From: Candidatus Magasanikiibacteriota bacterium
GTDB taxonomy: Bacteria > Patescibacteriota > Minisyncoccia > UBA6257 > GWB1-50-10
Assembly: GCA_042218035.1 (NCBI GenBank)
Contig: JBDGRM010000022.1
Location: 1 to 41,308, forward strand
Direction of reading: 5' to 3'
DNA: 41,308 nt
This document shows, in pieces, positions 4,317 to 17,409 of the stretch; the first letter of the stretch is position 1; each line of letters starts with the position of its first letter. Made by a program: the position numbers and the translations under genes. The notes beneath the pieces were generated by a model. That model was not told the DNA's origin. It was given only the letters and a program-made list of their open reading frames with translations, and ran no database searches.

Positions 4317-6332
4317 ATGAACGACAGTGAAAAAATATCCAAATATATCGAAAAACAAAAGGAATTGGTGGATATGGAACGAGAAGAGGAGATGGAAAGA
4401 CACCAAAGAGAAATTAAAAAGTTGTCCGGCAAAGAAAGACAAAGGAAGGGTAGAGCTATACTAAACTTGAAGGGTAAAGATGAGGGTCAAGATTTAGCGG
4501 GCCACTTAGTAAAATTCTCTAAAGTTAAGAAAGATACGAAGTTACCTGAAAATAAAATATCCGTGGGAGATCTTATTATGGTTTCTAAGAAAGACCCTAC
4601 CCGGGATGACAACCCTACCGGCACGGTAATAAAAACAACTAATTATTCCATTACAGCTGCATTCGATGGCCGTCCGCAGGGGTTTGTATACACTAAAGGC
4701 GTTAGGGTAGATTTATACGTTAACGATATTACTTTCCAAAGAATGAAAGAGGCTTTGGATAAACTTCTTGAGCCAAAAGAAAGAATTAGAAAAATTCGGA
4801 ACGCAGTTATTGGAATTGAAAGCATTGAAGAACCCACCCCTGTAGAAGTAGAAAATTGGGAAAACGACGATCTTAATGACTCTCAGAAAAAAGCAGTGAA
4901 AAATTCACTTGGCACAGAGGATATCCATCTTATTCATGGCCCTCCCGGAACAGGAAAGACAACAACTGTTATAGAATTGATAGAGCAGTATGTAAAAGAA
5001 AACAAAAAAATCATAGCCACTGCTGATTCGAATGCCGCTGTTGACAATATTGTAGAATTTTTAGTTGAGAGAGGTGTAAAAACGGTAAGAGTTGGTCACC
5101 CGGCCAGAGTAACGAAACTTTTAAGAAAACACACTCTTGATAGTCTGATCCAAAACAGAGAAGAGCACCAAAAAGCCAGCGGACTAAAAGAGAAAGCCTT
5201 TGATTTACAAGAAAAGCAAGAATCATTAACTTTTCCCTCCGGTCCGAATCGACGTGGACTCTCGAATAGTCAAATAAAAAAGTTGGCCCGAAAGAATAAA
5301 GGTTCCAGAGGCATACGACCCGAAAAAATAAGGAGCATGTCCAAATGGATTCAACTACAAGAAGAAGTAGAAAAACTTTTTTCTAAAGCGGACAAGCTGG
5401 AAAGTAAAGCTTTTAATGAAATTTTGGATGATTTTGAGGTGGTTTGTACTACCAACTCTACTGCCGGAAGCTCTCTTCTAAGTGAAAGAGAGTTTGATAT
5501 CTTGATAATAGACGAGGCAACGCAGGCTACTGAACCTTCTTGTTTGATTCCTATGACATTGGCTAAAAAGACTATTATGGCCGGAGATCACAAGCAACTA
5601 CCTCCAACTGTTCAAAGTCAGGAAGCAAAAGAAAACGGCCTTGACCATACTCTTTTTGAAAAGTTAGCCAAAAGGGAAGGTCGAGGCATAAGAGATCTGC
5701 TTAAGACTCAATATCGAATGAATGGAAAAATAATGAATTTTTCTTCGGATACCTTTTACAACGGCAAAATTGAGGCTCATGAGACAGTTAAAAATCATAC
5801 ATTATCCGACCTCGATTTTGACAATTCCATAATTCATACAAAGTACATAGAAGCTTTGGAGCCTGAGGTGCCAATAATCTTTTTAGACACAAAAAATACC
5901 AACTCTCAAGAGCGGTCAAAGCCAGGCTCTCACTCCAAGGAGAACAGCTATGAGGCAAAAATTTCAACGGGACTAGCAAAGAATGCCCTGAAGGGAGGTC
6001 TAGACCCTCGTCAAGTTGCAGTTATCACTCCTTATGATGACCAATCTGACCTCATAAGCGATAAAATAAAGCAGGATAATTTAGAGGTAAAAACAGTAGA
6101 CGGGTTTCAAGGCAGAGAAAAAGAGATGGTCATTATATCTTTAGTGCGATCGAATACCAACAGAAATATAGGATTTCTTTCCGATTTGCGAAGGTTGAAC
6201 GTTGCTTTAACGAGAGCAAAGCGAAAACTCATTTTAATTGGTGATTCTAGTACTATCTGCGTGAATAACACATACTCAGAGTTGGTAAAATACATAAAAG
6301 AAAACGGAAAGTATATTCAACTACCTTTTTAA
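4317..6332 (+). CDS. IGHMBP2/Upf1-like superfamily 1 helicase
   Basis: HGPPGTGKT, SNAAVDN, IDEATQ, GDHKQLPP, QYRM, TVDGFQGREK, RRLNVALTRA. Confidence 0.92.
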   Translation: MNDSEKISKYIEKQKELVDMEREEEMERHQREIKKLSGKERQRKGRAILNLKGKDEGQDLAGHLVKFSKVKKDTKLPENKISVGDLIMVSKKDPTRDDNPTGTVIKTTNYSITAAFDGRPQGFVYTKGVRVDLYVNDITFQRMKEALDKLLEPKERIRKIRNAVIGIESIEEPTPVEVENWENDDLNDSQKKAVKNSLGTEDIHLIHGPPGTGKTTTVIELIEQYVKENKKIIATADSNAAVDNIVEFLVERGVKTVRVGHPARVTKLLRKHTLDSLIQNREEHQKASGLKEKAFDLQEKQESLTFPSGPNRRGLSNSQIKKLARKNKGSRGIRPEKIRSMSKWIQLQEEVEKLFSKADKLESKAFNEILDDFEVVCTTNSTAGSSLLSEREFDILIIDEATQATEPSCLIPMTLAKKTIMAGDHKQLPPTVQSQEAKENGLDHTLFEKLAKREGRGIRDLLKTQYRMNGKIMNFSSDTFYNGKIEAHETVKNHTLSDLDFDNSIIHTKYIEALEPEVPIIFLDTKNTNSQERSKPGSHSKENSYEAKISTGLAKNALKGGLDPRQVAVITPYDDQSDLISDKIKQDNLEVKTVDGFQGREKEMVIISLVRSNTNRNIGFLSDLRRLNVALTRAKRKLILIGDSSTICVNNTYSELVKYIKENGKYIQLPF

Positions 6333-6339
6333 ATGGTTC

Positions 6340-8952
6340 ATGAAATACGCACATTCACAATCTTTAGATAAAATCAAAAAAGACACGGATACGAATTATA
6401 AGGAAGGACTTTCTAAGCAGGAAGCTGCTAAAAGACTTCAAGAAACAAACAAAAACGAATTGCCTCAGAGCAAGCGAAGATCTACTTGGCAGATAATTTT
6501 TTCCCAATTAAAAAACCCACTTATATACATATTAGTTATAGGGAGTATCTTTTCTTTTTACTTATCAAGGTTAGTTGACGGCTTTGTTATTTTAGCAGCC
6601 GCAATTGTAAGCATTATTGTAGGTCTTTGGCAAGAATATAAATCTGAAAATATATTCGAAAAGTTGAGCTCTGCTATCGAAAGAAAGGCTTTGGTGTTAA
6701 GGGATGGCCAGCAAAGAGAAATCAATGCTCGGAATATAGTAGTGGGCGATGTGATAATTTTAGAAGAAGGAAGAAACGTTCCTGCGGATGGTAGAATTCT
6801 TAAATCAAGGAGTCTAAAAACAGATGAATCCGCTCTTACCGGTGAGTCCGAGCCTGTTCAGAAAGATAGAGACTCTTTAGACAAGAACACCCCTCTAGCT
6901 GAAAGGAGTAATATGGTTTTTATGGGTAGTTCGGTTTTGGAGGGGTCCGGCAAAGCTGTGGTAACCGCTACTGGTCAAGAAACTCAACTGGGAAGGGTAA
7001 CTGAACTTACCCAAACAACAGAAAAAAACCAAACCCCCTTGCAGAAAAAAATATCTCAATTAGCTAACTTCCTTACTTTAGCGGTTTTGTTGGGTGGATT
7101 GGTAATAGTGCTGGCTGGACTGTACCAAGCTAGACCTTTTGGTGAAATATTAATTACTGCTGTTGCAGTTTCGGTTGCGGCAGTACCGGAAGGACTTGTA
7201 CCGGCTATAAGTGTAATTCTTGCAGTAAGCGCAAACAAAATTTACAAGGCTAAGGGGTTGGTGAGGAGGTTGGTAGCAGCAGAAACTCTCGGCTCGGCCT
7301 CTGTAATATGTACAGACAAGACCGGCACTCTTACGAAAGGTAAGATGGAAGTTAAAAAAATAATAACACCGGAAGGCAAGTTGGCCTTTGAGCAGAATAA
7401 AATTAACGAAAAAGAAAGCACTCTAGAAAAAAATAAACATACCAAGCTTATAAAACCTTTATTTTTTGCAAATGAATCAAAAATAGAAAAGACAAAGGAA
7501 GGTTATTATGATTTTGCGGGAAGACCGACTGATAACGCAATAATGAGATCCGCTCTAGCCTTATCAAAGGAAAATTTACCCTCAAAAGATAACCAAATAA
7601 CCAAAGTAGATTTTGATTCTCGGTGGAAATATATAGCCTCTTTTACAAAAAACAAAGTTTTTGTAGGAGGGGCTCCGGAGCAAATATTGAGTTTTACTGA
7701 TTTAAATAATGAGAAGCGAAAAAAAATTATAGATAAAAGCGAAAAACTTGCCCAAAGCGGCTTTCGAATAGTAGCTTTTGGTCAAAAGAATTATTCACAA
7801 AAAGTTTTTGGGTCAACTGACAGAGAAAAGTTGCGTGATATAGCAGAAAGCAACATAAATTTTGTATGCCTTACTGCCATTCGAGACCCTATAAGGCCCG
7901 AAGTGAAAGAATCGTTGCAAATAACCAGAGAAGCGGGCATAACCCCAATCATGGTTACAGGAGACCATCTTCTCACAGCAAAGGCAATAGGTAAGGAGCT
8001 GGGCTTTAAAACAAATGAAGAGTCTACCATCACGGGAGAAGAGCTAAGAGAGCTGGATGAGGAGAGCTTTGAGAAAAGAGTGGAAAATATAGAAGTTTAT
8101 GCTCGAGCGACGCCAGAAAATAAAATGAGGATAGTGGAAAAGTGGCAGAATAAGGGCGAGACAATAGGGATGACGGGAGATGGAGTAAATGACGCCCCCG
8201 CCCTTAAAAAGTCGGACATAGGTATTTCGGTGGAAAGCGGAACTGACGTAGCAAGAGATGCTTCAGACTTGGTTTTACTTGATAACAGTTTTTCGGTTAT
8301 TAAAGAAGCAATAAAACAGGGAAGAGCTGCTTTCGACAACATGAAGAAAATGACTCTCTTTTTGCTTTCGGGTTCTTTAGCGGAGTTTGGAATAATAATA
8401 TTTTCTATCTTAGGCGGGTTTTCTTTGCCCATTACGGGAGTGCAAATATTATGGATTAATTTTATTCAAGATGTTTTCCCCAGCATTTCTTTGGGTTTTG
8501 AGCCTGCAGAAGAAGGAGTAATGAAAAGAGACCCGATTCCAAAATCAAAAACTTTAACTGGTTCTTTTGTAAAGAAGGTGGTTTTTGTTGTAACTATGTT
8601 TATTGTCGTCTTTGGCCTCCTTGCTTTTGTATTTGCTAACTCATACAGCCTTAAGATAGAAACAATGAGGACTATAGTATTCACGATAGTAGGGTTAAAA
8701 TCATTAGCTTATATCTGGCCTATGAAAACACTCAAGGAACCGATATGGAAAGCTGAATTATTTAACAATAAACCACTTATATTTTCAGTTATTTTTGGGG
8801 TCTTTCTCTTAATTTCAGCTGTATACACCCCTTTTCTAAACAGAATTCTCGGCACTGCGCCTTTGAGTTTTGTAGAGTGGCTTCCTGCGATATTTTCAGC
8901 CCTTTTCACTGCAGGTTTGGTTGAAATAATGAAGAAACTTCATCATAATTGA
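6340..8952 (+). CDS. P-type cation-transporting ATPase (P2A, Ca2+/cation)
   Basis: TGES, PEGL, DKTGTLT, MVTGD, MTGDGVNDAPALK, ~10 TM helices. Confidence 0.93.
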   Translation: MKYAHSQSLDKIKKDTDTNYKEGLSKQEAAKRLQETNKNELPQSKRRSTWQIIFSQLKNPLIYILVIGSIFSFYLSRLVDGFVILAAAIVSIIVGLWQEYKSENIFEKLSSAIERKALVLRDGQQREINARNIVVGDVIILEEGRNVPADGRILKSRSLKTDESALTGESEPVQKDRDSLDKNTPLAERSNMVFMGSSVLEGSGKAVVTATGQETQLGRVTELTQTTEKNQTPLQKKISQLANFLTLAVLLGGLVIVLAGLYQARPFGEILITAVAVSVAAVPEGLVPAISVILAVSANKIYKAKGLVRRLVAAETLGSASVICTDKTGTLTKGKMEVKKIITPEGKLAFEQNKINEKESTLEKNKHTKLIKPLFFANESKIEKTKEGYYDFAGRPTDNAIMRSALALSKENLPSKDNQITKVDFDSRWKYIASFTKNKVFVGGAPEQILSFTDLNNEKRKKIIDKSEKLAQSGFRIVAFGQKNYSQKVFGSTDREKLRDIAESNINFVCLTAIRDPIRPEVKESLQITREAGITPIMVTGDHLLTAKAIGKELGFKTNEESTITGEELRELDEESFEKRVENIEVYARATPENKMRIVEKWQNKGETIGMTGDGVNDAPALKKSDIGISVESGTDVARDASDLVLLDNSFSVIKEAIKQGRAAFDNMKKMTLFLLSGSLAEFGIIIFSILGGFSLPITGVQILWINFIQDVFPSISLGFEPAEEGVMKRDPIPKSKTLTGSFVKKVVFVVTMFIVVFGLLAFVFANSYSLKIETMRTIVFTIVGLKSLAYIWPMKTLKEPIWKAELFNNKPLIFSVIFGVFLLISAVYTPFLNRILGTAPLSFVEWLPAIFSALFTAGLVEIMKKLHHN

Positions 8953-10177: not shown

Positions 10178-10477
10178 ATGTATGACTTCGTATCCTGCGA
10201 AGTTATAGAGCAGAATAAAGTGATACCTATAAGAGAGAGTGAAAGAGGTGTTATTTTAAGATCCGTCAAAGAAGAAGAATTTTACTTTATTGTGGACAAA
10301 AGCCTAACAAGGATTAGTAGAGAGCCCGAAGGCACTGAGAGGGTCAATGGTGAAGTAATGATTGACCGAATTCTAAAAAAGAACGAAAATAGTCTGCTTG
10401 TTAGACCCAGGCATAAAGAAGCTTTTACCTCTAGAGCAGTTTGGATGCCGAAAGAGAAAGTTAATTCTTCAGGTTAA
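10178..10477 (+). CDS. hypothetical protein (99 aa, beta-rich)
   Basis: ATG-started ORF followed directly by a strong terminator. Confidence 0.6.
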   Translation: MYDFVSCEVIEQNKVIPIRESERGVILRSVKEEEFYFIVDKSLTRISREPEGTERVNGEVMIDRILKKNENSLLVRPRHKEAFTSRAVWMPKEKVNSSG

Positions 10478-10491
10478 AACCTACTTATTCT

Positions 10492-10526
10492 GTCCCGCCG
10501 CCGTTATGGTGGCGGGCTTTTCTTTT
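10492..10526 (+). terminator. intrinsic terminator
   Basis: GTCCCGCCGCC-GTTAT-GGTGGCGGGC-TTTTCTTTT. Confidence 0.8.
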
Positions 10527-10565
10527 GATACAATTATTTTTAGAGAAAGTGATTATTTTTTAAAT

Positions 10566-13500
10566 ATGCCCTTCGGTAATTTTGAAGACCAAAAAAAAGA
10601 AAATAAAGAAACCCAAGATAAAGAAGGTTTTGGTGAACAAGAAGCCAAAACCTTAGATCAGAAATTTTTTGATTTAGGTCCATATGAAACTCCTGAAAAT
10701 AGCGAGTACGAAGAGATTTCAGAAATAGAGTCCGCAGTAGGAAATATCTCCCTTCAACAGCATTTAATTGAAGAAATAGACAAGAGAACTAAAAAAAGAA
10801 TAGAGAAAGAAGTTGATCGTCTTGAAAATGCTTCCCTGGATGAATTATACGAAAAAGCAATAGACCTTAAAAACAGGTTAGCTGAACTGAAAGAGAAAAA
10901 CAATGAAATCAAAGAAAATCATGATCTGGCTGAATTCGAAACAGGAACTTATAGAACTAAAGAAGCTCCGACTGAATTGAAATTTGACCTGGAAGGACCT
11001 GAAGATATTAAAAAGCTTGGTAGATTGCAAGAGGCAATCAACCTCAAGTTCGGAGATTTATACGAAGAGTCTGAATACAAAGAAGGACTACTTTCAGAAC
11101 TGAAAGATATAATAAAAGATCGCCGGCTTCAAAGAGAAGGTTTTGAGAATGAAGAGGATCTAAGAGAAAAAATAAAAAAGCTGAGTGATGAAAGGTTCGA
11201 TTTGCGATTTGATATACGAGATCTAGAAAAGAACAAATCTTTTTTGGAGAAGTTAGGACTGGTAGAAAACCAGGAAAGATTAAAAAAACTTTCCGACAAA
11301 GAAGAGCGCTTTGAAAAAGTTAAAAGTAAAATAGATAAACTGAAAAATATAGAAGATTCTAAAATTCCTCATCCAGAAGGAGGTGTTATTGAATTTGACT
11401 CTAGTTATAGGAACACCCCGAGCACTTTTTTTGTTAAGCATAAGATGATTGAAAACACTAATGACGTTGTAAAAAATAAAATTTCTGATTTTTTTAATAA
11501 AAAACTAGAAAACTTAGCTGAAAAAGACATCTCTGAAATAGACACTAAAAATATAGAAAACAAAATAAATAATATAAAGGATAAGTATCTCGATGATTTA
11601 ATTTCTGAAATTATAAAAGATGAAACATTTTCCGAAGAGAACATTGAGTTGATCCAAAATTACAAAAATTGGCTAAAAAAGGTTTCAAAAAATTACATGG
11701 ATGATTTTGAAGTTGAGAAAGAAAGGCTTCCTGAAAATATAAAGAAGAAGGAGTTTGATCGATTTTGGGACCTTCATACATTTGTCCGCCAAAAGACACA
11801 AGAGTTTTTTGAAGAAGAGTCTTCAGCTATTAAAATATCTAATCTTGAAAAACTTCTTGATAAAATAAAAAGCTTTCAAAAACATCCTTACAGAAGGAAT
11901 ATACAAGAGAAGGTAGAAAAAATAATGACTCTATCACCTCTTCTTGAAGAGACTAAGAAAAACGTTAAATATCAAGAAGCTGCTGAAGAAATAGGATTAA
12001 GTAATAAATTAGAAAGCAAACATTATAGAAAAATGGCAAGAGAGATAGGAAATATAAGGAAATTCCACTCTAATATTTACGATATCAATAAAACGCTTAC
12101 AAAGAATATAGATATGGACTTTTGGTTGAAAGTTAGAAATATGAAATCATTCAAGAGCTTTATGAAGCAAGAAAATATTGATTTAAGATTTGTCAACAAT
12201 GCTATAGAACGAGGTTACTTTTATAATCAAATTATTGATGACAATGGTTCTGAGTATCACTTAAAGCGCGTACTAAAATTTTCCAATCCGGAACTTGTCC
12301 CTATGACAGCACTGGAGATTTGGAGCAAATTTGGAGAAGATGCTGAAGAAATACCTAAGGAAATAGAATCTAAACTTGAAAGTTATCAAGAATACATAAA
12401 ACAGAAAGACTTCAGCCATCTTTCTGAAAAAAAGAAGAGAGTTGTAAATATTCTAGAAAAAAATAATGATATAGAAAGCTTCCTCGATGTATTTAATTCA
12501 CCACAAGGATCTGGAATTGCAGAAGACTTACTTACTGATATGTACGAACGAGGCAATAATATGGAGCAAGATTTTGTAGAAAAATTCATCAAAAGATTTT
12601 CTTTTGGTTTAGATAAACTTTCTGATTTTTGTCTTAAACAAATTGAGAAGGATAGCCATATCTCTAATAGGATATTAAAGAATAAAATTCGTTACCCTGA
12701 GAATTCGGGAACATTTCACTGGGTTATGAATGAGGCAGAAGACTGGTTGAAGCAACGAAGAGATATTTTTGAGTCATTTATGGCAGGTTTATACAAAGTA
12801 GCTGACAATTTAGAAAAAGATGATAAAGACAAAGCCCTAAACATACTATTGGAAAAAGTTGGAAATGTAGTTGATTCAATAAGCACTTACAGTAATCTGA
12901 CAAACCTTGAAAGATTTATAGAAAGTTTTTCTGACAAAGAACAAGAAATGATTGTAAACAAAATTATAAGAAAAGGCATTAAAAAGGAACCTGACAATCC
13001 TAAAGGTTTAATACAGCTAGCAGATAAAAAAATTTCTTACATGGATGAAAAAACTAAAGAAAAAATGGTTGATGTTATTGAAGGAAATGAAGACATTGTA
13101 GTAAATCATAGTTTGATCAATAGTTTTTTAAGCCTATACGAAAACACAGATAAAGACAAAAGATTTGAAATTAGAGATAAAATATTTGAACTTGGAATAC
13201 AGGAAAAACCCGGGCTTTTCAAACAGCTTTATACTCAAGATAACTTTCCTTTTTCTGAAGAGCAGTTAAAAATAATGGAAATTATGAACAAGATTTGGAA
13301 TTCGCCCTCGAAGAGCATGAAAAACCTCGGAATAGAATTAGCTGAACAGATTACCAGCAAAGTTGATATATATGATACTAAGGCTTTAGAAGAAGCTTAC
13401 CAAGAAATTGAGGACATCTTCGTTAAGAACAATATACCTTTTGTTGGTAAACAATATAAGGTTTTTGAGGTTCTAAACCCTGACAAGAGACTTGAAAAAA

Positions 13501-15416
13501 CTAATTTCGGAAGCCCGATACTTTCAGAAAAAAGCAATAACAAGAGGCGACTTATCATTTTTAAAGATCTCTTAAAGGGCAATATTGAAAGCCTTAACAG
13601 GGACCTTGAAAAATATGCTCAAGTTATCGCTGAAGGTCAGGAAGTTTTGGACAAATATGAGCAAGGAGTAGAGTTATCTGCTGCGGAAACAAAAGATTTA
13701 GAGAGCCTATTGATAAAAATTGAAACGCTTTCAGAAAATATTCAGCAAGTAAAGGGTTTTGAGGATGTAGATTTTAAGAACCTTGATATAGATAAAAACA
13801 TAAAAGCTTTAAGAAAAAACTTTAAAGTCCAAGATGATGAAACTATATCAGAAAAGTTTAGCAGAACTTTTATACAAAGATCGAGAGTTTCTGGTCTTGA
13901 AAATTTGAGTGACTTGATAAAATTCTATGATGACCATCGTAAAAAAGTTACGAAGAGAAATAGGCAGAATATAGAAAATGGCAGTTTTAATCTAGAAGAG
14001 AAAGATCTTGCAAAAGGGGTTCAGCTTAGATTTTTTCATAAGCAAATAAATAGAGGGTTTTATTCGCCTGAGTTTGTCGGAGCTGAAACAGAAAAAGCTA
14101 AAAAAACAGTTGAAACTGGAGACCAAACCCCTTTCGACAGTGATGTAATAGAGGTGGGTGAGAGAGATTTGAATACTGTCGTTAAAGAATCACGAGTTAA
14201 AAATTATGGTGATATAACTCTTTTTATTAAAGATAGAAACCAGTTTAACAGAACCGACCAAGAAAAAGCTGAATTAAGTGAAGACAAATTGGAGCTCTTT
14301 AGTTTGGGGAGAGATCATCGAGGAATCAGAACTGGATTTGGCTCTTCACAAATAGATGCCCTAGCAGTTAGTGAAAATTTGCAAAAACAAGAAGAAAGGC
14401 TAGACTCAATTAAATTCTCTATTGCAAGGCAAGGATTTTATATACCAATCACGGATGAAACAGGGGAAGTTATTTTTGATTATGAAGAATTTGAAGAGTA
14501 CAGAGACATATTTTCTGGTATCGAAAGGTATCACGGCGGAGAAATTGAGCTTTCAAGTGAGTGGAAGGGCTCTGATTATGCTTCTCAAATTGAAAATATT
14601 GCTCAAACCGAAGAAAACATAGAGAAAATAGAAAACCTTCGTGACGATTTATATAAAGACATAGAAAAAGCTCTAAATGAAGTCGGAATTGAATTAACCA
14701 AAGGCAGAAATAAAGATTCTCTTATAGGGGCCCACATTATCGATACCGGTTCCACTGGTAGAGGCACCGCTTTGGATATTGAAGATGGGGTGGATTTTGA
14801 CTTTGTAGTCAAACTCAATGATAGAGATTATGAAAAATTTGAACAAGTAGGAGATAAACTCGAAGAAAAATACCCTCTCGACGATGATTACCCTCAAGAC
14901 AATATGCACATGTATCGATTTTTAGAATTCGAACACGAAGAAACAAAAAAGAAAATCAGCTTGGATGTAGGGTTTGTAAAAAGATCTGAATACCAAACTT
15001 TGGATGCTCAAGAAGCTGTATCTCAGAAGTACGATTCAATCAAGGGAAATTACGGAAAAGAAAAATGGCTGGAGGTTCTTTCGAATGTTCGATTTGCCAA
15101 GAAAAAACTTAAAGAGGCTGAATGTTATAAACCTAGTCACAAAGAGGGTGGCCTGGGTGGTATAGGAGTTGAGAATTGGGTTCTCAAGAATGGTGGAGAT
15201 GTCATAAAGGCCTTTAAGGAATTTTATAAAAACTCTTTCAATGAAGACGGAGAAATAATCCCATTCGAAAAGTTTAAGGAGAATTACAAAATTTTCAGCG
15301 CGGGAGAGAATATAAGAGGAAATGAGATAGCTGAGAATTTTGTTGAAGGTAACATGACCAGGTCAGGTTACAAAAAAATGGCAAAACTATCCGAGAAAAT
15401 TGCAAAAAACTCATAA
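10566..15416 (+). CDS. giant (~1616 aa) multidomain protein: coiled-coil/helical N-terminus, possible ART-like domain, C-terminal Pol-beta (class I) nucleotidyltransferase
   Basis: Start moved to ATG 10566 (MPFGNFE...) because the 10398 extension overlaps the previous ORF and a terminator; C-terminus has DTGSTGRGT...DFDFVV, SLDVGF, VRFAKKKLK...GGLGGIGVENWVL. Confidence 0.8.
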   Translation: MPFGNFEDQKKENKETQDKEGFGEQEAKTLDQKFFDLGPYETPENSEYEEISEIESAVGNISLQQHLIEEIDKRTKKRIEKEVDRLENASLDELYEKAIDLKNRLAELKEKNNEIKENHDLAEFETGTYRTKEAPTELKFDLEGPEDIKKLGRLQEAINLKFGDLYEESEYKEGLLSELKDIIKDRRLQREGFENEEDLREKIKKLSDERFDLRFDIRDLEKNKSFLEKLGLVENQERLKKLSDKEERFEKVKSKIDKLKNIEDSKIPHPEGGVIEFDSSYRNTPSTFFVKHKMIENTNDVVKNKISDFFNKKLENLAEKDISEIDTKNIENKINNIKDKYLDDLISEIIKDETFSEENIELIQNYKNWLKKVSKNYMDDFEVEKERLPENIKKKEFDRFWDLHTFVRQKTQEFFEEESSAIKISNLEKLLDKIKSFQKHPYRRNIQEKVEKIMTLSPLLEETKKNVKYQEAAEEIGLSNKLESKHYRKMAREIGNIRKFHSNIYDINKTLTKNIDMDFWLKVRNMKSFKSFMKQENIDLRFVNNAIERGYFYNQIIDDNGSEYHLKRVLKFSNPELVPMTALEIWSKFGEDAEEIPKEIESKLESYQEYIKQKDFSHLSEKKKRVVNILEKNNDIESFLDVFNSPQGSGIAEDLLTDMYERGNNMEQDFVEKFIKRFSFGLDKLSDFCLKQIEKDSHISNRILKNKIRYPENSGTFHWVMNEAEDWLKQRRDIFESFMAGLYKVADNLEKDDKDKALNILLEKVGNVVDSISTYSNLTNLERFIESFSDKEQEMIVNKIIRKGIKKEPDNPKGLIQLADKKISYMDEKTKEKMVDVIEGNEDIVVNHSLINSFLSLYENTDKDKRFEIRDKIFELGIQEKPGLFKQLYTQDNFPFSEEQLKIMEIMNKIWNSPSKSMKNLGIELAEQITSKVDIYDTKALEEAYQEIEDIFVKNNIPFVGKQYKVFEVLNPDKRLEKTNFGSPILSEKSNNKRRLIIFKDLLKGNIESLNRDLEKYAQVIAEGQEVLDKYEQGVELSAAETKDLESLLIKIETLSENIQQVKGFEDVDFKNLDIDKNIKALRKNFKVQDDETISEKFSRTFIQRSRVSGLENLSDLIKFYDDHRKKVTKRNRQNIENGSFNLEEKDLAKGVQLRFFHKQINRGFYSPEFVGAETEKAKKTVETGDQTPFDSDVIEVGERDLNTVVKESRVKNYGDITLFIKDRNQFNRTDQEKAELSEDKLELFSLGRDHRGIRTGFGSSQIDALAVSENLQKQEERLDSIKFSIARQGFYIPITDETGEVIFDYEEFEEYRDIFSGIERYHGGEIELSSEWKGSDYASQIENIAQTEENIEKIENLRDDLYKDIEKALNEVGIELTKGRNKDSLIGAHIIDTGSTGRGTALDIEDGVDFDFVVKLNDRDYEKFEQVGDKLEEKYPLDDDYPQDNMHMYRFLEFEHEETKKKISLDVGFVKRSEYQTLDAQEAVSQKYDSIKGNYGKEKWLEVLSNVRFAKKKLKEAECYKPSHKEGGLGGIGVENWVLKNGGDVIKAFKEFYKNSFNEDGEIIPFEKFKENYKIFSAGENIRGNEIAENFVEGNMTRSGYKKMAKLSEKIAKNS

Positions 15417-16854: not shown

Positions 16855-17409
16855 TTAAATAGAGAAACCATCAATTTTTTTATATTGTGAGCCCTGTTTT
16901 GACAACTGCGATTCCATTAAGTGAACAGACTGAGGTTTAAAGGATACCTCTAACTCTTTGCTTATTTGAGGAAGGTTTGAAACTTTAGCCGGATCAAAAC
17001 GAGCCAAAGTAATATGGCCTTTATAAGAGCGATTATCTTTGTCCCACTTTAAACCTTGAGATTCTAAAACTTCTCTAACTTTACCTTTTATTGCACCCAT
17101 CTGATTAGATGTATCCTTGCTAGTAGTTGCCCAAATCATTCTTGGCTTAGAGTTGGGTGGAGCCCACATTATTTGATTCATATGTACCTTTACGGGCTCG
17201 ATATTTTGGGTTGCCTTTTCTAGGCCACTCTTGATTTTTTTTAGAGATTGTTTCGGCTGGTTCCCAAGAAACACAAGAGTAAAATGCCATTTTTTGGGTG
17301 GTTCATATCTTATTTTCTGCCCTCTTAATTTTGCTCGTACCGATTTTAAGCTTTTTGATATTTTTTCTTTTGCCTCCTCGTTTAGAGGAAGGGAGATAAA
17401 TAACCTCAT
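16855..17409 (-). CDS. thpR: RNA 2',3'-cyclic phosphodiesterase (2H family)
   Basis: MRLFISL, two HxT motifs (HFTLVFLG, HITLAR), PRMIW, LMESQL...Y. Confidence 0.92.
   Translation of the reverse strand: MRLFISLPLNEEAKEKISKSLKSVRAKLRGQKIRYEPPKKWHFTLVFLGNQPKQSLKKIKSGLEKATQNIEPVKVHMNQIMWAPPNSKPRMIWATTSKDTSNQMGAIKGKVREVLESQGLKWDKDNRSYKGHITLARFDPAKVSNLPQISKELEVSFKPQSVHLMESQLSKQGSQYKKIDGFSI

Follow-up and report, generated by a model that had tools for sequence, protein, structure and literature searches.

The analysed window, a stretch of 41,308 nucleotides (contig JBDGRM010000022.1) from a Candidatus Magasanikiibacteriota genome (679 kb in 50 contigs, 95.6% complete), contains a gene, P0002, that encodes a giant protein of 1616 amino acid residues. 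The protein consists of a fast-evolving N-terminal region and a conserved C-terminal module of about 735 residues, composed of an all-helical domain, an ADP-ribosyltransferase (ART)-like domain and a nucleotidyltransferase (NTase), in that order (Table 1). A preliminary description of the window had proposed a single gene of this length at 10566-15416, and the open reading frame (ORF), an upstream hairpin and the start codon bear this out. The mechanical ORF extends over 10398-15416 (+) and opens with TTG. The ATG at 10566, the first one downstream of the hairpin, is likely the start of the giant gene, since the terminator-like hairpin closes the upstream ORF. The hairpin thus ends an orphan ORF located directly upstream and marks the giant gene off as its own unit.

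The size of the conserved part differs from the initial view, in which about 1100 residues of E/K-rich coiled coil were followed by about 300 residues of NTase. Within the first 400 residues 42-46 per 100 are charged. Both the helical domain (~881-1135) and the beta-rich domain (~1136-1325) had been missed. What had appeared as a lone NTase of ~300 residues on a stalk is really the last part of the three-domain module, which includes the ART-like domain. In local BLAST alignments with 119 homologues, the conserved part comprised ~720-735 residues and not ~300; the stretch from ~950 to 1600 aligned in 119/119 and the stretch from ~900 in 106/119, while the N-terminal 850 residues were aligned by a single homologue (P0004). 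With phmmer, the whole module was covered in a single stretch in 194 of 229 proteins, and the region preceding it had a median length of ~714 residues (range 3-2062). Among 189 proteins the module was alignable in each of the 17766 pairs (17766/17766) and an N-terminal similarity of at least 150 residues was detected in 595/17766. Pairs with such similarity amounted to 188/328 at 50-60% module identity and to 37/11210 at 30-40%. As the N-terminal similarity fades with falling module identity, the N-terminus was inherited together with the module and evolves far faster.

No membrane helix was predicted for the protein (the maximum Kyte-Doolittle value in a 19-residue window was 0.68), and neither a signal-like N-terminus nor a signal peptide was seen in the 1616-residue translation. 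A Pfam search with the whole protein yielded nothing; for the N-terminal 880 residues there was no Pfam match and no usable match in a language-model atlas. No tandem repeats were found in the gene. The conserved module begins with the helical domain (residues 881-1135), which is helical in the predicted models of the module and has P958, K962 and D1001 as invariant residues (P78, K82 and D121 in the numbering of the 736-residue C-terminal module P0233).

Table 1 Features of the giant gene and its immediate surroundings (window coordinates)
Feature	Position	Strand	Remarks
Orphan ORF, 99 aa	10178-10477	+	directly upstream of the giant gene; no Pfam family
Terminator-like hairpin	10494-10516	+	10-pair stem with 8 G-C pairs, followed by a T-run
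Giant gene (P0002)	10566-15416	+	1616 aa plus stop; translation of the open frame
N-terminal region, aa 1-880	10566-13205	+	fast-evolving, highly charged; no recognisable domain
All-helical domain, aa 881-1135	13206-13970	+	conserved; motifs SPSxE, KNN(L/I)PxVGK and IFxDLL
ART (NAD+-lobe)-like domain, aa 1136-1325	13971-14540	+	beta-rich; best Foldseek match 7yw4
ART-like domain motif D-L-x-K-G	K1150 at 14013-14015	+	from column counts
E1243	14292-14294	+	invariant in the ART-like domain
Other ART-like domain motifs			E1169; SDxTPxDxD (D1186, D1193); HxGIRTG (H1251, R1255); GFYIP
Pol-beta nucleotidyltransferase, aa 1326-1616	14541-15413	+	catalytic lobe plus helical lobe
DTGSTGRGT	14742-14768	+	GS at 14748-14753; translation
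DxD motif DFD	14793-14801	+	translation
Third acid in SLDVGF	14958-14975	+	Asp at 14964-14966
Helical-lobe motif AKKKLKEAECYK...GGLGGIGVENW	~15093-15179	+	translation
LigT/2H 2'-5' RNA ligase-like phosphoesterase gene	16855-17409	-	1.4 kb downstream of the giant gene; adjoins def and fmt

The C-terminal end of the protein, always preceded by the helical and the ART-like domains, is an intact Pol-beta-type NTase according to its predicted fold, of the two-lobed kind known from poly(A) polymerases (PAP), terminal uridylyltransferases (TUTase), class I CCA-adding enzymes (CCA-I) and OAS. The coordinates first assigned to the GS, DxD and third-aspartate motifs proved exact by translation. An alignment of the last ~290 residues was built from 59 sequences, namely the window and 58 loci from other genomes; locus L019 was dropped because of an in-frame stop. 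Residues G1395, S1396, R1399, D1410, F1411, D1412 and D1467 were invariant (59/59), as were the N, K, Y and G-G-x-G-x-E positions of the helical lobe, so that the expected conservation of the catalytic residues among homologues was observed throughout. An AlphaFold2 model of the 736-residue module, calculated from a 56-row alignment, had a predicted local distance difference test (pLDDT) score of 88.5 and a predicted template modelling (pTM) score of 0.88. Foldseek searches of the PDB with this model returned 36 matches at E<=1e-3, all with a probability of 1.00, in line with the Pol-beta fold that had been proposed from the motifs. The best match was the yeast PAP (1fa0, E 1.2e-4); others were Cid1 (4e7x, 1.7e-4), NF90/NF45, the CCA-adding enzyme of A. 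fulgidus (1r89, 3.7e-4) and OAS1 (9.6e-4). The NTase matches span 280-360 aligned columns and all of those listed affiliate with the PAP/TUTase/CCA-I/OAS group; CD-NTases were absent among the listed matches, in which PAP, Cid1 and CCA enzymes rank first. Within the group no single family is clearly closest to the modelled structure. Similarly, a language-model atlas search led to archaeal CCA-type and OAS clusters, to be taken as a lead only. Because the motif set is invariant in all 59 sequences and the fold is predicted with high confidence, these motifs are more than a product of chance.

Curated sequence models recognised the domain weakly. The C-terminal 366 residues matched the Pfam families SMODS (E 0.043) and NTP_transf_2 (E 0.85) below the cut-offs; for the latter (PF01909) the protein of the window scored 12 bits against a cut-off of 21. 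Over the 59 members, NTP_transf_2 was matched at E<=1 in 23/59 (best 1.5e-4) and SMODS in 6/59, the SMODS scores of 14.5-15.2 bits (E 0.026-0.043) staying under the cut-off of 26.5. The only PADLOC models to respond were those of CD-NTase 'cyclases', which scored 14-16 bits (E 1.5e-3 to 7.4e-3) over the GS-DxD stretch, and a PDB profile search with the NTase alignment gave cGAS, OAS2 and CdnG only, at E 0.25-1.3. Searches of NCBIfam, PHROGs and the PDB sequences with the giant protein provided nothing usable. Since no curated model reaches its cut-off, the NTase is counted, on sequence grounds, as a new family within the Pol-beta nucleotidyltransferase superfamily.

The presence of class I CCA-adding enzymes among the fold matches raises the question of whether the gene encodes the CCA-adding enzyme of this genome or, alternatively, a catalytically dead structural protein. 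According to a recent report (10.64898/2026.05.29.728689), the CCA enzymes of Patescibacteria are of class II, and a class II PolyA_pol/CCA-type enzyme (PF01743, 123 bits) is indeed encoded on another contig of this genome (C12), which argues against the first option. Furthermore, the giant gene is missing in 391 of 401 sampled genomes of the phylum, PF09249 had no match, and CCA body and tail domains are absent, given that the protein ends ~150 residues past the third aspartate. A dead protein is contradicted by the invariant catalytic residues. Both options are very improbable, and the earlier statement that the protein is not a housekeeping CCA enzyme stands.

The beta-rich domain in the middle of the module (residues 1136-1325) probably represents an ART-derived fold. 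A separate model of module residues 1-470 (pLDDT 87.2) had PDB entry 7yw4 as top Foldseek match (probability 0.99, E 0.083, template modelling score 0.66 on the target). This entry holds only the NAD+ lobe (residues 101-230) of the yeast Tpt1, as stated in the publication that describes it (PMC10415124). Of 46 matches listed, 33 were Tpt1/KptA, PARP1, tankyrases and DarT, at E 0.08-1.4. A viral Foldseek library contributed weak and mostly unnamed matches, among them one PARP-like iridovirus protein at E 1.1. In hhalign comparisons with E. coli KptA and with a profile of 14 KptA sequences (E 0.07-0.09, probability <1%), both alignments, although non-significant, placed the D-L-x-K-G-V...I-L-Q-N-G of the giant protein on L-Y-H-G-T...I-x-x-x-G of KptA, which contains the NAD-binding HGT motif. 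The histidine and threonine of the H-G-T motif serve NAD+ binding, according to the same source (PMC10415124).

The domain possesses a conserved residue set of its own. Column counts over 60 members were 57 for D1147, 56 for K1150 (with H in 2 and R in 2), 58 for G1151, 60 for E1169, 60 for D1186, 58 for T1188, 59 for P1189, 60 for D1193, 60 for E1243, 56 for H1251, 59 for R1255, 58 for Y1292 and 60 for P1294. These residues constitute a second conserved motif set besides that of the NTase, of which K1150, E1243 and the invariant Asp residues may line a pocket.

The ART-like domain also occurs in other architectures. When 401 Patescibacteria genomes were searched with a profile of the middle domain, 14 were positive, compared with 10 for the whole module. 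The four additional proteins (L120-L123 in genomes G215, G257, G242 and G148) are likewise giant, with open frames of 718-1885 residues, and match neither the NTase profile nor the helical-domain profile of the family studied here. In one the ART-like domain ends the protein; in another it is followed by an HD domain (PF01966, E 3.3e-4), in a third by an NTase of the DUF294 type, whose PF03445 score of 23.4 bits exceeds the cut-off, and in the fourth by ~225 residues without significant match. At the K-G-V position two of the four sister proteins read L-L-H-G-T and Y-I-H-G-S in the profile alignment, and two members of the main family, L044 and L046, likewise carry H-G-[ST] at this position.

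The giant protein belongs to a large family. A word-indexed search with residues 1250-1616 yielded 710 proteins of 888-2828 residues at E<=1e-3 among 7995 scored candidates; none of them is functionally named, and scattered precomputed Pfam matches occur in 3 of 120 listed. When 1.84 billion cluster representatives were searched exhaustively with HMMER, 762 matched at E<=1e-3, of which 659 also at <=1e-10 and 408 at <=1e-30; in almost every case the match lay at the very C-terminal end of a protein of 1000-2400 residues. None of 32 diverse full-length members contained a Pfam family at E<=1e-3, and the family has no match above cut-off in Pfam, NCBIfam, PADLOC or PHROG and is unnamed in all sources; a PDB profile search with the family alignment gave low-complexity noise only (fibrinogen). 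The literature searched on the topic contains no paper that describes the family or an architecture of ART-like domain plus NTase, a search that did not extend to supplements, which could list such architectures; within this scope, the view of the system as undescribed is upheld.

Of 416 pattern matches in a collection that comprises a single genome for each of 185,579 species, 382 encode a relative. The best 80 loci carry the labels of many Patescibacteria lineages and of gut and rumen 'Bacilli'/Erysipelotrichaceae metagenome-assembled genomes (MAGs), and 10 of them are labelled 'uncultured Gammaproteobacteria'. Three of these ten were checked and have genomes of only 0.8-1.4 Mb, for which reason the label is distrusted. 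Several carriers labelled 'Gammaproteobacteria' or 'Micavibrio' either have genomes of 0.8-1.4 Mb or group with Patescibacteria in the tree, and L026 and L047, with identical module sequences, come from MAGs labelled Daviesbacteria and Rikenellaceae, respectively; such mismatched carriers are probably mislabelled or contaminated bins.

Within the sampled Patescibacteria the gene is present in 10/401 genomes (8/339 high-quality genomes), in 0/24 genomes of the window's own family and in 1/16 others of its order. In the order of one Bacilli carrier, a group of small-genome gut Bacilli, 11/121 genomes carry it. A phylogeny calculated from 80 module sequences by a quick search in IQ-TREE (LG+G4) placed the 30 Bacillota rows on one side of a branch with a Shimodaira-Hasegawa-like approximate likelihood ratio (SH-aLRT) support of 100. 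The window clustered with L002-L004 (support 100) and L006 (95), and L083, the only carrier of the same order, fell in another clade (99). The family is thus a patchy, tree-incongruent accessory gene of small-genome bacteria.

Searches for a stand-alone ART-like or NTase domain retrieved 29 and 15 short matches, respectively; as they are near-identical and most of their contigs measure 0.6-3 kb, they are probably fragments. Four proteins of 252-464 residues (P0124, P0126, P0266 and P0272), located on contigs of 13-42 kb, match the C-terminal part of the module only, which may point to gene splitting or truncation and not to a fragmented assembly. In the Komeilibacteria-labelled locus L019 (7228-8067) one in-frame stop lies within the NTase domain, which could be due to a pseudogene, a sequencing error or recoding. 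The gut Bacilli genomes G444 (contigs C1 and C3) and G461 (C1 and C13) hold two copies each, every one 32-34% identical to the module of the window. From the window itself, 28-72% of sampled words of 12000-15416 were present in four sequencing runs (X1-X4) from two studies; X1 and X4 are labelled as salt lake metagenome, X2 and X3 have no label, and no RNA run is among those listed.

The genomes of carriers are small (0.7-1.7 Mb), the protein is very large and its N-terminus evolves fast, features which would also fit an exported effector. In that case an episymbiotic or host-dependent bacterium would modify macromolecules of its host or of competitors by ADP-ribosylation and/or nucleotidylylation, and the N-terminal region would serve delivery or targeting; ARTs and NTase-fold AMPylators are classic effector chemistries. 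However, the protein has neither signal peptide nor membrane segment, no secretion genes were found near the giant gene here or at 80 other loci, and the family also occurs in gut Bacilli, which are not known epibionts. An effector role is distinctly unlikely.

The gene neighbourhoods were compared over ±6 kb at 81 loci. No neighbour was conserved across them, the largest neighbour cluster being present in 7/81, and small same-strand ORFs within 200 bp were found at 7/63 upstream and 7/69 downstream positions. The giant gene is therefore a stand-alone gene; in the preliminary description, too, no adjoining Cap effector had been recognised. The 99-aa ORF directly upstream was rejected as a partner, since neither the 81 other loci searched (best E 0.86) nor 40 relatives contain a homologue of it. 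A YqeY neighbourhood is common to six relatives and unlike that of the window, and hence no insertion site can be defined. It is chiefly at second codon positions that the giant gene is low in GC, reflecting charged and Asn/Ile-rich residues; the GC content at third codon positions (GC3) is 0.255 in the N-terminal part, 0.304 in the module and 0.27-0.40 in the neighbours. The composition gives no clear sign of recent import. A polyvalent protein of phages or conjugative elements was rejected as a candidate because no copy was found in the phage, plasmid and IMG/VR sets and the neighbours are chromosomal housekeeping genes. Further upstream in the window, an SMUBP-2/Upf1-like superfamily 1 helicase (AAA_11/AAA_12) at 4317-6332 (+) is separated by 7 bases from a P-type cation ATPase at 6340-8952 (+), an odd operon pairing.

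The neighbourhoods bear on the suggestion that the protein is a self-contained sensor-synthase of a nucleotide second messenger, similar to OAS, cGAS or CD-NTases, whose N-terminus would sense infection and whose product would target either the ART-like domain or an effector encoded elsewhere. The weak matches to the CD-NTase 'cyclase', SMODS and cGAS/OAS2/CdnG profiles are in favour of such a function, as is OAS1 among the Foldseek matches. Yet these profile matches cover only the generic helix-GS-DxD stretch and remain under every curated cut-off, no CD-NTase appeared among the structural matches listed, and no linked effector gene exists at the 81 loci. As no neighbour is conserved at these loci, the gene does not resemble a cyclic oligonucleotide-based anti-phage signalling system (CBASS). 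A sensor-synthase is highly unlikely.

A gene for a LigT/2H phosphoesterase is located 1.4 kb downstream in the window (Table 1), which is suggestive given the Tpt1-like domain. KptA, 2H proteins and ligases cooperate in RNA repair, as described in PMC9503650. This constellation would agree with a dedicated maintenance enzyme for RNA or tRNA 3' ends: a 2'-phosphate or other end block would be cleared by the Tpt1-like domain and the 3' end restored by the CCA/PAP-like domain. By fold, the middle domain comes closest to the NAD+ lobe of Tpt1 and the NTase is similar to class I CCA enzymes; moreover, in a sister protein the ART-like domain is paired with an HD phosphohydrolase. Nonetheless, the adjacency of LigT is not kept, its cluster being a singleton among the 81 loci, and the distribution of the family (10/401; 0/24 in genomes of the same family) is too sparse for maintenance. 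In addition, the Tpt1 RNA lobe, which bears part of the catalytic residues, is absent (with PF01885 in 0/151 genomes), HGT is replaced by KGV, and a hypervariable N-terminus of ~880 residues is hard to account for in a repair enzyme. Dedicated repair is thus considered unlikely.

Tentatively, and with somewhat less than even confidence, we regard the giant gene as encoding an accessory enzyme, soluble and stand-alone, from a large family without Pfam match, a prediction from sequence and modelled structure. With the same reservation, it may be a two-domain enzyme that acts on RNA ends and is possibly related to conflict. From the combined data we infer substrate, chemistry of the ART-like domain and biological role as follows. 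The NTase would add nucleotides from nucleoside triphosphates onto a ribose hydroxyl, most likely that at an RNA or tRNA 3' terminus. Binding or chemical processing of this terminus would fall to the neighbouring ART-derived domain, either in a Tpt1-like manner with NAD+ or with an altered ligand, His-Gly-Thr having become Lys-Gly-Val. The variable N-terminal part would set the specificity for target or partner. The reading as an RNA-end enzyme is based on the chemistry of nucleotides and RNA ends that the NTase group, the Tpt1-like domain and the HD and NTase pairings all share. Enzymes of the NTase group either modify RNA 3' ends by tailing or CCA addition or synthesize 2'-5' oligoadenylates, and Tpt1, structurally closest to the ART-like domain, processes RNA 2'-phosphates. 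The role would be an attack on, or the repair of, RNA during conflict with phages or with a host or competitor rather than a core function, because the distribution is sparse and tree-incongruent and the N-terminus hypervariable.

Several observations weigh against this interpretation. For the ART-like domain, every Foldseek E-value is above 0.05, Pfam searches over 60 members gave nothing consistent, the PDB profile search gave nothing, and the hhalign comparisons with KptA were non-significant (E 0.07-0.09, probability <1%). PF01885 was matched by none of the Patescibacteria genomes searched, this one included (0/151). In 56/60 members K-G-V/I stands where the HGT motif has its NAD-binding His and Thr, which makes the use of NAD+ doubtful, and the HD example among the sister proteins lies just below the Pfam cut-off (21.4 bits vs 22). 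For the conflict-related part, the 96 directly flanking ORFs are mostly of housekeeping type (release factors (3), aminoacyl-tRNA synthetases, TGT, CTP synthase and ribosomal proteins) and not of defence or mobile type, with 1 transposase among them, and the module, at a GC3 of 0.30, stays inside the range shown by the neighbours. No relative was detected in 50,697 phage records, 72,556 plasmids or the IMG/VR contigs. In view of the housekeeping flanks, the ordinary GC3 and the lack of phage, plasmid and viral copies, a conflict role is suggested only by the patchiness and the fast N-terminus.

A bolder variant is a new single-protein system of ultra-small bacteria in which the ART-derived domain and the template-independent NTase would act in sequence on one RNA end: the end would, for example, be marked or primed with an ADP-ribose-type or phosphate-linked group and then extended, and the hypervariable N-terminus would trigger or target the reaction, for use as an abortive-infection or inter-bacterial weapon. 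We consider this variant quite improbable; if it were true, the sequential action of an ART-derived domain and an NTase on an RNA end would be a chemistry not yet described.

For the accessory RNA-end enzyme that we favour, the substrate would be of general interest. Small-genome Patescibacteria and gut Bacilli have few spare genes, yet some keep this gene of 4-5 kb. Conservation of the C-terminal 735 residues of its product extends over at least 762 sequence clusters, and two apparent active sites lie in this part. Knowledge of the substrate would annotate hundreds of 'hypothetical' giant proteins and show the role of an ART-derived domain with a lysine in place of the NAD-binding histidine. 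It might also bring to light a novel chemistry at RNA ends or a new type of one-gene conflict system, the organisms concerned having poorly understood host and phage interactions.

Among characterized proteins, the PAPs, Cid1-type TUTases and archaeal class I CCA-adding enzymes share with the giant protein the two-lobed Pol-beta NTase with GS, DxD and third aspartate followed by a helical lobe. The K-x-x-L-K...Y-K...G-G-h-G-G-x-x-x-E-x-W pattern of this lobe resembles K-x-W-A-K...G-x-L-G-G of PAP and G-F-S-G-Y-x-x-E of archaeal CCA enzymes. In contrast, sequence identity to these enzymes amounts to 10-16%, and the giant protein has neither the RNA-binding body or tail of CCA enzymes nor the RRM-like domain of PAP. 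Tpt1/KptA and the H-Y-E/H-H-h clade of ARTs (PARPs, tankyrases and DarT) provide the best structural matches of residues 1136-1325, at E above 0.05, and in the non-significant hhalign alignments the beta1-helix motif of the family, h-h-[KHR]-G-x(4-5)-h-x-x-I-L-x-x-G, falls on LYHGT...I...G of KptA. Unlike Tpt1/KptA, the giant protein contains no winged-helix RNA lobe, the region preceding the ART-like domain being all-helical, and its own invariant set of E1169, D1186, D1193, E1243 and R1255 is without known counterpart in ARTs. The CD-NTases of CBASS and the OAS/cGAS proteins belong to the same superfamily, with matches to the N-lobe motifs that are weak and below cut-off; in contrast to CBASS, the giant gene has no Cap effector or other operon partner. 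Lastly, the bacterial class II CCA enzyme joins an NTase with a C-terminal HD phosphoesterase in one protein. The family of the giant protein resembles it in that an end-processing-like (ART-derived) domain is joined to an NTase or, in sister proteins, to an HD domain, although the NTase class and the partner domain differ and this genome has its own class II enzyme.

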